Source of the DNA: Escherichia coli
GTDB lineage: Bacteria > Pseudomonadota > Gammaproteobacteria > Enterobacterales > Enterobacteriaceae
NCBI RefSeq assembly: GCF_041248615.1
Contig: NZ_CP158427.1
Direction: 5' to 3' (one strand)
DNA length: 64,000 nucleotides
A program made the position numbers. Below, one piece after another: positions 9,701 to 12,700 of this stretch. The first letter of the stretch is position 1; each line of letters begins with the position of its first letter.

Positions 9701-12700
9701 GAGATAGCTTTTGTGCGCGGTCGGAGTGGTCCTGACGAGGGTTTACCCGAAGTCGGGGCGTATCTCCGCGTTAGCGGGCCGTCAGGGCCGCTTACGAGCG
9801 TGTATTCAGGGGTCAGCTTGGAATTCGGAAATTTTCCCACGCTAAGAGAATTGAGTTGAAAGGATGGTTACATCTAGGCCAGCTAACTCACTGAATGTAA
9901 ATGCTGTACGAAATATTCTGACCGTTCGATAATCGTTTGGCTTACTTCCGTACATTCCCTTGCACAGATGTACAGAATTGTACGAGTTCGGACACCAAAA
10001 CCGCTGTTGTCCCGCCATTCTGGCGATTCCTGAAAGTCATTTGACTAAAAAATAGGGGCTATTTCGAATTTTCTGGACACTCCTGACGCGGAGTCTGTGA
10101 CTTCAACCTGACACCTTACGCTCTTAGCGTACGATTTTTTCCGTTTCGTGAGTTGACCCCTTTATTTTCCAAATTCCAAACTGCCCCCTACATTTATACA
10201 ATGTCCGGCAGGGCATAGAAGGGGAGAAAGAAAATACCTAGGCGAAGCCGCTGAACATCATTCTGGCGATTTCAATAAAGGCATTTGCTCGCGCTCTGTC
10301 ATTATGATGATAAATACGATTTTAACGCCAGCACTCACCGTGGCGTCATCGGAGAGTCGCACACAAGGCTCGGGGCGATGTGTTCTGGTAAAGAGTACCA
10401 GATACTGCTTCCTGGTGAAATTCACATTAAAGAAAGTGGTAAGCGATAATATAAGGGCCGGGATTCCGGCCTTTTTATGCAGCCTTTATAACAGTGTATT
10501 AGTCATTCGCATATTCAACATATCCCTCCTCACAATGGTACATGCCATAATACATTCTCTTACCCTCCGGACCTTCAGCTTTAAATGGGACAAGAAGTGT
10601 TTTTTCATCTTCAACATCTGTTAAACTTCTTTCAATCTTTTCCCATGTAATTTTCGGGATTTCTGTACCAAGAAGTTGTACATCGTTGTCCCAGCGTTTC
10701 ATTCTTTGCAGGTAATCATTTTTTACAAACGTTCTGGCCTGTTCATCGCTGACCTGATAGCATGCCGGAGCTTTATCTTTAGACCAGAAAAAAACAGCAG
10801 TAAGAGCAATAATCGTTAAAATAAAAATAAATTTCATGCTAATTACTTTCATAAAATCTCCACAACTTCTGTCGTCCATTCAATATAAAAAAACATTACG
10901 AATATATCCGTACAATGTGAGCATACTGTGAAGTGGCTTTAACAATTATGAAATAATACAAGAGATCACATATTGCAGTGGTCTCTTTTTTATAGAAGAA
11001 ATCACAATTCATAATTGTGATTTATTATGCATGTCTGTTTTTCAGCATTGTGACCGCATCGGACTCAGGCATCAAAAACTGCACCCGGTGCCGTGCAGCC
11101 ACATCCAGCGCAAACACCTTCGTATAGACCTCCGTTGAGCTGATGGACTTATGCCCCATCAGGCTCTGCAGGACCTTCAGCGGTATACCGGCATACAGCA
11201 TGTGCATCGCATAGGAATGGCGGAACGTATGTGGCGTGACCGGGACAGAGAACGTCACACCATCAGCGGCAGCGGCGGCAACCGCCTCCCCAATCCAGGT
11301 CCTGACCGTTCTGTCCGTCACTTCCCAGATCCGCGCTTTCTCTGTCCTGCCTGTTCGTTTATTACGCCGTTCCATGGGGATTTTCAGTGTGGCCACCATC
11401 ATCTGCACCTGGCTGACGTACCAGGCGTCGGAGAGCGGAACCAGCCGGTGAGTCTGCTGACCGGCGGGCATTCTTCCTGCCGTCCTGGCGGCTTTTTCTG
11501 TCCGCTGCTTCAGAGTGGCCAGCTGCACAAACGGATACGGAGGCGCAAGCGAAAAATCCCCCCGCGTCAGCGCCAGTGCTTCATTAATGCGCGCACCGGT
11601 GTTCCACAGTGTGGCCAGCAGCATCTTGCGGCGCAGATCCGGGACGTAATGGAGCAGGGCGCTCACTTCAGGGGCCAGCAGGTAGGCCGTTGTGCCCCCC
11701 GTGGAGGTGGCCATTCTTCTCAGGGAGAGTGCTGTTGCAAAATCCACCCCCGGCGCAATGGGTAACAGGGAGACGCGTTCTGGTGAATTCTGCAGGGGAA
11801 TGACATTGTTCATGAGTTATTTTTCACGTAGCACACGCACTGTTTATGGCTACAGGTGGTTTTGCTGCTTTTGGGAGAAATGGGGTAATAATGCTAGGTG
11901 GCACCGAAGCGGGGGGGTGAATGTAAAGCTCTTTCGTACTGTGCATCGCATTGTACTCATCATTGAGTAAGTGCTAAACCATGTTAATAGGTGATACTCT
12001 GAACAACACCCCAGAACTATAAGCCCCCATCAATATGATCATGGCAGAAAAGATGCCGGCTTCTTATTAGAGCACTCTGCACTCTCCTAGACAGAACGAG
12101 CTTTGCCATGGAAAGCTCATCTACCTGGCTATTTGTATTGATGCTGTACAAAGATCATCTTAGCTTAGGAACTTTCGTCTACTATTTCTAACGGCAAATA
12201 TCTCAGAAAGGATTATTTGTTTTTATATTTTTTATAAAAACAAAATCCCTTCTGTTTATTTTTTTTATAAAAACAATAAACAAACATTTTGCCTTTATAT
12301 CAAATATAAAAAAAATAACACAATCTGTTTTTATTGTGTTTATTTGGATATAAATACTGAAAAACAAAGATGAAACAGAATTTTACTCTACAATGTCATC
12401 TTTGCATGGTTTTATTATCTGTCGCAATTTATGGTAATCTCACCATTCAAGGAAAATATTTCTTGAACGACCTTTCTTGTTGGGTAGAATAAGAAAAAAA
12501 TCATGTGGTGCTTTTATTTTTTTACACTTGGACATAATTAATGCAGAGATAGATAATGCCGTGTCATAGTGAACATAGCTCTGACGTTACATATAATCAT
12601 AATGGTATTACCAGAAGAAGGCCTGCAGAGGTAGGCATGGCTCATGATCAGTTTGAAGCTTTAATAGAAATATCTTCTATACATAGCCACAAGGTAATTC

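Follow-up and report, generated by a model that had tools for sequence, protein, structure and literature searches.

Introduction

Colicin M is a lipid II phosphatase that gains entry through FhuA/TonB. Its immunity protein, Cmi, neutralises the imported colicin in the periplasm before the peptidoglycan precursor is degraded. The N-terminal helix of Cmi (residues 1–23) is uncleaved, and its YebF-fold domain, stabilised by a disulfide, faces the periplasm. The Cmi of pColBM plasmids, also named ImM, is the protein of UniProt entry P18002, represented by the monomer 2XGL and the domain-swapped dimer 4AEQ. Two crystal structures, the sequence, the localisation, and the mutagenesis of Cmi have all been published and are summarised in PMC8469651. 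According to this source, Cmi is a periplasmic protein of 117 amino acids that is held at the inner membrane by residues 1–23. Its Cys31–Cys107 disulfide depends on DsbA and is essential, and roles have been assigned to E81-D82-E83, E113, and Y114 by mutagenesis. Replacement of the anchor is tolerated, and soluble periplasmic Cmi is still protective (PMC8469651).

The toxin gene cma and the immunity gene cmi are canonically arranged in convergent orientation (PMC8469651, PMC6723558). Expression of cma is driven by an SOS promoter upstream of cba, while cmi is stated to have its own promoter (PMC8469651). Copies of cmi kept beside a truncated cma have been noted in surveys (PMC6723558). Furthermore, orphan immunity genes have been described on 243 plasmids, with 46 falling into the 'peptidoglycan-inhibiting' class (bioRxiv 10.1101/2024.11.06.622277, also PMC12546727). 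In that work, distinct plasmids were found to share one and the same heavily truncated toxin gene, a pattern argued to reflect selection for protection (bioRxiv 10.1101/2024.11.06.622277).

The stretch of DNA analysed here, referred to as the window, comprises 64,000 nucleotides of Escherichia coli contig NZ_CP158427.1. Over at least 23.1 kb it is 100% identical to p14408_1 (NZ_LT599826), a 137-kb IncFIA/FIB/FIC plasmid of E. coli NRZ14408 that carries KPC-2. A preliminary description of the window had pointed out an isolated small secreted or membrane-anchored protein of no recognisable family, encoded in a short AT-rich stretch bounded by a 115-bp repeat and a recombinase gene, and had proposed a homology search and a check of conservation in related sequences. 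The gene is very probably cmi in an orphan configuration.

Identity of the gene and its start codon

The ORF listing places a minus-strand open reading frame of 126 amino acids, with an ATG start, at 10499–10879. Several features of the preliminary description hold for it. The stretch is AT-rich, with a GC content of 0.367 in the open reading frame compared with 0.504 for the whole window and 0.587 for the adjoining recombinase gene. A hydrophobic N-terminal segment is also present, the top 19-residue Kyte–Doolittle window being VISMKFIFILTIIALTAVF (mean 2.44), which corresponds to residues 3–21 of a 117-residue form. The neighbours that it named, a toxin–antitoxin module and a second recombinase, were recovered by Pfam as a ParE/RHH (ribbon-helix-helix) pair at 8931–9490 on the minus strand and a recombinase gene at 11025–11813.

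The lack of a recognisable family was an error. A PDB sequence search aligned the product with 4AEQ at 95 of 98 identical residues (E=7.5e-65) and with 2XGL at 91 of 94, so that the homology search contradicts an unknown family. Since the match at E=7.5e-65 is to a solved protein, the open reading frame is a genuine gene and not a chance one. Moreover, Pfam YebF (PF13995) is matched at 33.6 bits, above its gathering score of 27 (E=3.8e-8). The score against NCBIfam NF041240 (YebF_not_Cmi) is 40.5 bits, far under the equivalog cut-off of 110, and therefore points to Cmi and not to YebF. Conservation in related sequences was borne out as well, as 1,618 plasmids of PLSDB were matched by megablast with the 901-nt region. 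All PLSDB matches listed label the coding sequence 'cmi: colicin M immunity protein', and the cmi annotation is present in more than 580 plasmids. Judged from these matches, Cmi, the colicin M immunity protein, is near-certainly the product of 10499–10852. Reading from sequence without tools overlooks accessory genes of this kind, which are short, AT-rich, and well known.

The start codon is likely the ATG at 10852, giving a protein of 117 amino acids, in which case the 126-residue open reading frame is nine codons (27 nt) too long. This start is favoured because it is the one annotated by RefSeq on NZ_LT599826 and because a GGAG stands 5 nt before it, with none before 10879. The RefSeq cmi coding sequence on that plasmid has 354 nt (117 amino acids) and maps to window positions 10499–10852, and the published length of Cmi is likewise 117 residues (PMC8469651). 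The minus-strand sequence around this start reads ...TGTGGAGATTTTATGAAAGTA, with the putative Shine–Dalgarno GGAG at 10858–10861 (minus strand). Upstream of the ATG at 10879 no Shine–Dalgarno sequence was found, the preceding sequence being TTTTTTTATATTGA. Among 12 aligned loci, GGAG is conserved in 11, and locus L003 has GGAA.

The coding sequence (10499–10852, minus strand, 117 codons plus stop) is thus placed by PDB matches, RefSeq annotation, and key residues. Cys31, Cys107, E81-D82-E83, E113, Y114, and the anchor residues 1–23 are all retained in the 117-residue numbering. Of the phrase 'secreted or membrane-anchored', it is the anchored part that stands, given the intact residues 1–23 and the published topology of Cmi (PMC8469651). 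Relative to the other sampled alleles, the window allele carries A18T, E25K, and G28A, all within the anchor or the membrane-proximal linker, and it differs from the PDB sequence by D96E. The exact window protein occurs in only two PLSDB plasmids.

The truncated toxin gene and the shared terminator

The plus strand at 10303–10449 encodes residues 223–271 of colicin M, the last 49 (phmmer against PDB ColM chains, E=1.1e-25), followed by the stop codon. DNA homology gives the same picture. The blastn alignment to L002 (NZ_CP045714), a plasmid with intact cma, starts at window position 10299, which corresponds to cma nt 667, where codon 223 begins. Homology to L002 and L003 spans 10299–11684 at 97.3% identity and ends inside the recombinase gene. 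This dead remnant has no in-frame ATG and has lost the translocation and receptor-binding domains along with most of the catalytic domain. It has also acquired the substitutions L243H and F250C, as well as S222H where the junction lies, and the SOS promoter that drives cma is lost at this locus. We infer that the plasmid cannot make colicin M, because the deletion removed the first 222 cma codons.

The stub is convergent with cmi, and 49 nt separate the two stop codons, the same spacing as in intact L002. A terminator scan located a GC-rich hairpin, GGCCGG-GATT-CCGGCC, at 10456–10471, flanked on either side by a T-rich tail. This hairpin is predicted to be the shared convergent terminator of cma (stop at 10449) and cmi (stop at 10499). 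The landmarks of the preliminary description, the 115-bp repeat and the recombinase gene, are real. The repeat is not the direct boundary of cmi, as 195 nt holding the cma remnant and the terminator hairpin lie between the two. Similarly, 'isolated' is apt for a gene separated from its functional partner but not for an unrelated stray, since the remnant of the cognate toxin gene lies 49 nt away in convergent orientation.

A tblastn search with ColM and Cbi, covering the window plus the other 75 kb of NZ_LT599826, returned only the ColM stub (residues 224–271) and no cbi. Because the stub alone was found, cmi is an orphan immunity gene on this replicon. An orphan cvi was found elsewhere on the NZ_LT599826 plasmid by tblastn with Cvi. 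Two further open reading frames were considered in this interval and rejected as genes. The first, of 54 codons over the cma stub (10285–10449, TTG start), has no in-frame ATG and no SOS promoter, and its upstream sequence varies by junction type. The second, of 106 codons on the plus strand (10304–10624), is out of the cma frame and antisense to cmi.

Origin of the repeat and of the deletion junction

A repeat search detected a 115-nt direct repeat, 97% identical between its two plus-strand copies at 8475–8589 and 10189–10303. The first copy is continuous with ORF93 (8544–8825), as in the native order, and with the intact ParE/RHH pair. The second is preceded on the left by a segment designated X, and its right end, where the cma stub follows, is the deletion junction with cma. 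The native order, seen in the intact ColV/ColBM plasmids L004 and L005, is cvi-X-R-ORF93-parE'-cbi-cma-cmi-int. The window equivalents are 9808–10160 for X, the 115-nt segment for R, and 8590–8825 for ORF93. A derived order is found in L013–L015, namely cvaB, a cvaC-like gene, cvi, (IS481), X, and R, joined directly to the cma stub, cmi, and int. Their junction is identical to that of the window, with ...CTCGCGCTCTGTCAT on the left of the breakpoint and TATGATGAT... on the right; the identical junction sequence was found in L012–L015.

Given these orders, the junction is explained by a deletion of about 2 kb, which begins where R ends and extends to cma nt 666; it removed cbi and 222 cma codons and would also have taken out ORF93 and parE'. 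R, normally located downstream of cvi in ColV/ColBM plasmids, was thereby joined to cma codon 223. Left in place were the cma stub and the terminator that it shares with cmi, then cmi itself, still equipped with a ribosome-binding site and a conserved upstream region, and finally the linked recombinase gene. The latter, a tyrosine recombinase gene on the minus strand at 11025–11813 (Pfam Phage_integrase, 3e-18), was tied to cmi by blastn to L002 and L003, and its homology to the cmi-linked ColBM integrase stops at 11684.

The 115-nt 'repeat' itself is the part in which two diverged partial copies of one backbone segment, brought together in a mosaic plasmid, overlap. A functional or transposition-derived element was rejected, as the orders in L004/L005 compared with L013–L015 show overlapping backbone copies. 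The repeat is accordingly a scar left by the mosaic history of the plasmid, marking the deletion that killed the toxin gene, and not a functional element. Additionally, X is bounded by 38-nt inverted repeats resembling those of the Tn3 family, for which a target-site duplication was not found; this would fit recombination at or within X. An Rfam search over 8000–12600 at E<=1 gave no match, and so no known RNA lies behind the conserved non-coding blocks.

The position of the break within cma is shared more widely. Across two unrelated flanking contexts and three junction variants, the cma breakpoints all lie in a span of about 25 nt (cma nt ~643–666) and surround the palindrome TCATATGA. The window-type break lies at cma nt 666, L007 keeps cma from about nt 652, and L003 keeps a further TTACAATG of cma but with a 10-nt internal deletion. 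The last 49–53 cma codons are always kept, including the DxYD(x5)HR catalytic motif. The second flanking context lies downstream of ehxD on STEC plasmids. Judged by SNP distances, the window-type and ehx-type truncations do not form one group, and so the two are probably independent deletions; a common origin is unsupported by these distances. For an 813-nt gene, the probability that breakpoints coincide to within about 15 nt by chance is about 4%. It is nevertheless improbable that the clustering marks a hotspot for site-specific recombination or deletion, perhaps through the adjacent tyrosine recombinase, or selection that keeps the 3' end of cma for cmi expression.

Prevalence of orphan cmi

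Orphan copies of cmi are abundant in the public record. With full length taken as at least 80% coverage, tblastn against PLSDB found full-length Cmi in 586 plasmids compared with full-length ColM in 443. The window-type junction is present in 31 PLSDB plasmids, while 106 carry a second type, found on STEC plasmids behind the enterohaemolysin gene ehxD. Together, these two junctions account for essentially the whole surplus of cmi over cma in PLSDB. A cma::IS3 case is also seen, at L008. Among 5,426 complete E. coli genomes, full-length cmi DNA occurs in 633 and the first 666 nt of cma in 438. The difference of counts implies that cmi is an orphan in about 195 complete genomes, or about 31% of its carriers.

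Expression and maintenance of the orphan gene

The region at 10853–10990 on the minus strand presumably holds the promoter of cmi, a position derived from the 12-locus alignment and the hexamer scan. About 140 nt upstream of cmi are almost invariant in the 12 loci, while the sequence beside the recombinase stop codon is highly variable. A standard promoter scan gave no strong minus-strand promoter upstream of cmi. The best -10 candidate in a relaxed hexamer scan was TATATT at 10882–10887, accompanied by a weak -35, and neither scan revealed a convincing sigma-70 promoter in this region. Taking the intact gene, its ribosome-binding site, its upstream region, and the terminator together, the plasmid most likely still gives its host immunity to colicin M from competitors, an expectation held with reasonable, not high, confidence.

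The strongest competitor to a maintained immunity gene, although rather unlikely, is that cmi is a decaying relic spared beside the recombinase and the backbone, unselected and maybe poorly expressed or inactive. Several observations would fit such decay. The variable codons of 11 intact alleles comprise nine nonsynonymous and five synonymous ones, a comparison of little power at such low divergence. The density of variable sites is 0.042 in cmi and 0.041 in the dead cma stub, again with little power over 12 loci. Neither the codon counts nor the site densities in these 12 loci give a clear sign of purifying selection on cmi. Furthermore, the window allele has three private substitutions and is confined to two PLSDB plasmids, and the cmi of the ehx-type orphan L006 is frameshifted. 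At 1–4% divergence, moreover, a 354-nt open reading frame would usually stay open by chance.

Other observations speak against decay. The residues defined as essential by mutagenesis are all kept, and the substitutions are grouped in the anchor and linker, a part of the protein in which even replacement of the anchor is tolerated (PMC8469651). In addition, cmi is intact in five of five sampled plasmids with the window-type junction, although these differ at up to 12 of 721 sites (up to 1.7%). Conservation of the ribosome-binding site and the upstream 140 nt argues in the same direction. The orphan arrangement is found in about 137 plasmids of varied replicons and hosts and is implied in the ~195 complete genomes, and a case for selection maintaining such orphans has been published (bioRxiv 10.1101/2024.11.06.622277). 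On balance, a retained and protective cmi is preferred.

Far less probable is a repurposed protein, either one whose cross-immunity extends to other ColM-like bacteriocins that degrade lipid II or one secreted in a YebF-like manner, with the A-P-A|C signal-peptidase site created by G28A. The fold and family relation to YebF, the alanines placed by G28A at -3 and -1 before Cys31, and the protection afforded by soluble periplasmic Cmi (PMC8469651) would be compatible with it. However, the YebF_not_Cmi score of 40.5 bits lies well below the cut-off of 110, the canonical G-P-A already consists of small residues and Cmi is nonetheless reported to be anchored (PMC8469651), and the gene context suggests no other partner toxin. 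The reading as a new small protein outside any known family, either secreted or in the membrane, is suggested by the N-terminal hydrophobic segment and small size only and can be practically discounted in view of the 97% identity to crystallised Cmi, the Pfam YebF match, and the cmi annotation in more than 580 plasmids.

The retained cmi has some practical meaning. A multiresistance IncF plasmid carrying KPC-2 would probably give its host free protection against colicin M producers. Such protection is relevant to the proposed use of colicin M, or of probiotics producing ColM, against resistant E. coli.

Comparison with known systems

The encoded protein resembles the Cmi of pColBM in its 117-residue length, its anchor, Cys31/Cys107, E81-D82-E83, and E113/Y114. 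The locus resembles that of pColBM as well, with convergent orientation at 49 nt from the cma stop, a hairpin terminator common to both genes, and the recombinase gene linked to cmi. It differs in that cba and cbi are absent and cma is cut to its last 49 codons. A close counterpart is found on non-O157 STEC plasmids (NZ_CP027318, CP027598), where a cma-stub-cmi-integrase block, 97% identical, lies downstream of ehxCABD. In this block cma is truncated within about 25 nt of the window position, but the left flank is the ehxD downstream region and not the 115-nt segment, and the junction sequences and the SNP group differ.

Among more distant relatives, the YebF family (PF13995) shares the fold family and the conserved cysteine pair, whereas YebF itself is a cleaved, secreted, chromosomal protein, unlike the anchored Cmi. 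PmiB and BmiB of Pseudomonas and Burkholderia are likewise small and periplasm-facing; they share a pair of conserved cysteines and carry a signal or anchor at the N-terminus (PMC8469651). They also protect against lipid II-degrading bacteriocins but belong to other sequence families with other cognate toxins.

The closest parallel is with the published orphan colicin immunity genes, which likewise stand next to a heavily truncated toxin gene, with a truncation common to several plasmids. Between these and the window locus there is no difference in kind. The presence of cmi beside a dead cma stub is a common, ordinary, and already described arrangement, and its discovery value is small. The finding is already known in kind and detail, to which the exact junctions and counts are added here.

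Orphan immunity genes and breakpoints of cma

The plasmid carrying the orphan colicin M immunity gene cmi harbours a second orphan bacteriocin immunity gene, the colicin V immunity gene cvi. It lies outside the window, at 31507-31740 (L009, record coordinates) of NZ_LT599826, the RefSeq plasmid identical to the window, where it is annotated as 'colicin transporter'; the protein identity is 90%, and no cvaC was seen in the examined regions of this plasmid. The truncations of cma beside cmi occur in two flanking contexts with three junction variants, and their breakpoints (window 10299-10303; 6980-7005 and 3995-4015 in the ehx-type loci L003 and L007, respectively) fall within about 25 nt of one another, clustering around the palindrome TCATATGA. 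Such clustering of independent truncations would be expected by chance in roughly 4% of cases.

Tyrosine recombinases and fimbrial operon

The two tyrosine recombinase genes have in common their first 218 nt together with 44 nt of upstream sequence, at 90% identity (window 11596-11857 versus 1786-2047), and the recombination site may lie in this common 5' part. The second recombinase is a mosaic, since its homology to the integrase that accompanies cmi on ColBM plasmids ends at 11684. Downstream of it lies an Afa/Dr-like fimbrial operon (window 12556-16476 and onward), whose genes encode a regulator of the PapB family, a chaperone and an usher, as well as an AfaD-family invasin, the last named according to RefSeq. 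The block of cmi, integrase, and fimbrial operon finds a 99.6% match in IncI/K poultry plasmids of about 110 kb, such as pLKSZ01.

Repeats and putative mobile element remnants

A conserved hypothetical ORF of 93 aa (8544-8825, minus strand), matching neither a Pfam nor an NCBIfam family, adjoins the ParE/RHH toxin-antitoxin pair, and its last 14 codons fall within the 115-nt direct repeat. Its 93% identical paralogue (29698-30033, plus strand) is located beside a ParM/StbA-like partition gene (30509-31471). Just past the RHH antitoxin gene is a GC-rich block of about 250 bp (9554-9805, GC 0.59), for which Rfam returned no match. More than 5,000 PLSDB plasmids of Escherichia, Klebsiella, Salmonella, and Shigella carry a copy at 93-96% identity, mostly unannotated. 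Additionally, RefSeq annotates in the identical plasmid a reverse transcriptase gene of the group II intron type (window 4890-6790; 6262-8591 in L001), fragmented and with an IS3-family element inserted.

A non-coding 352-bp element at 9809-10160 resembles a miniature element or a remnant derived from Tn3, situated at a recombination joint. A partial second copy is present at 28657-28863, and in ColV-type plasmids the element is placed between cvi and the 115-nt segment. Its flanks read ATTCA and TTTAT, without a 5-bp target duplication. Its ends are 38-nt imperfect inverted repeats (26/38 matching), starting with GGGGTC and ending with ACGCTAAG; these show the hallmarks of Tn3-family ends and match the Tn3 inverted repeat at 20 of 38 positions.
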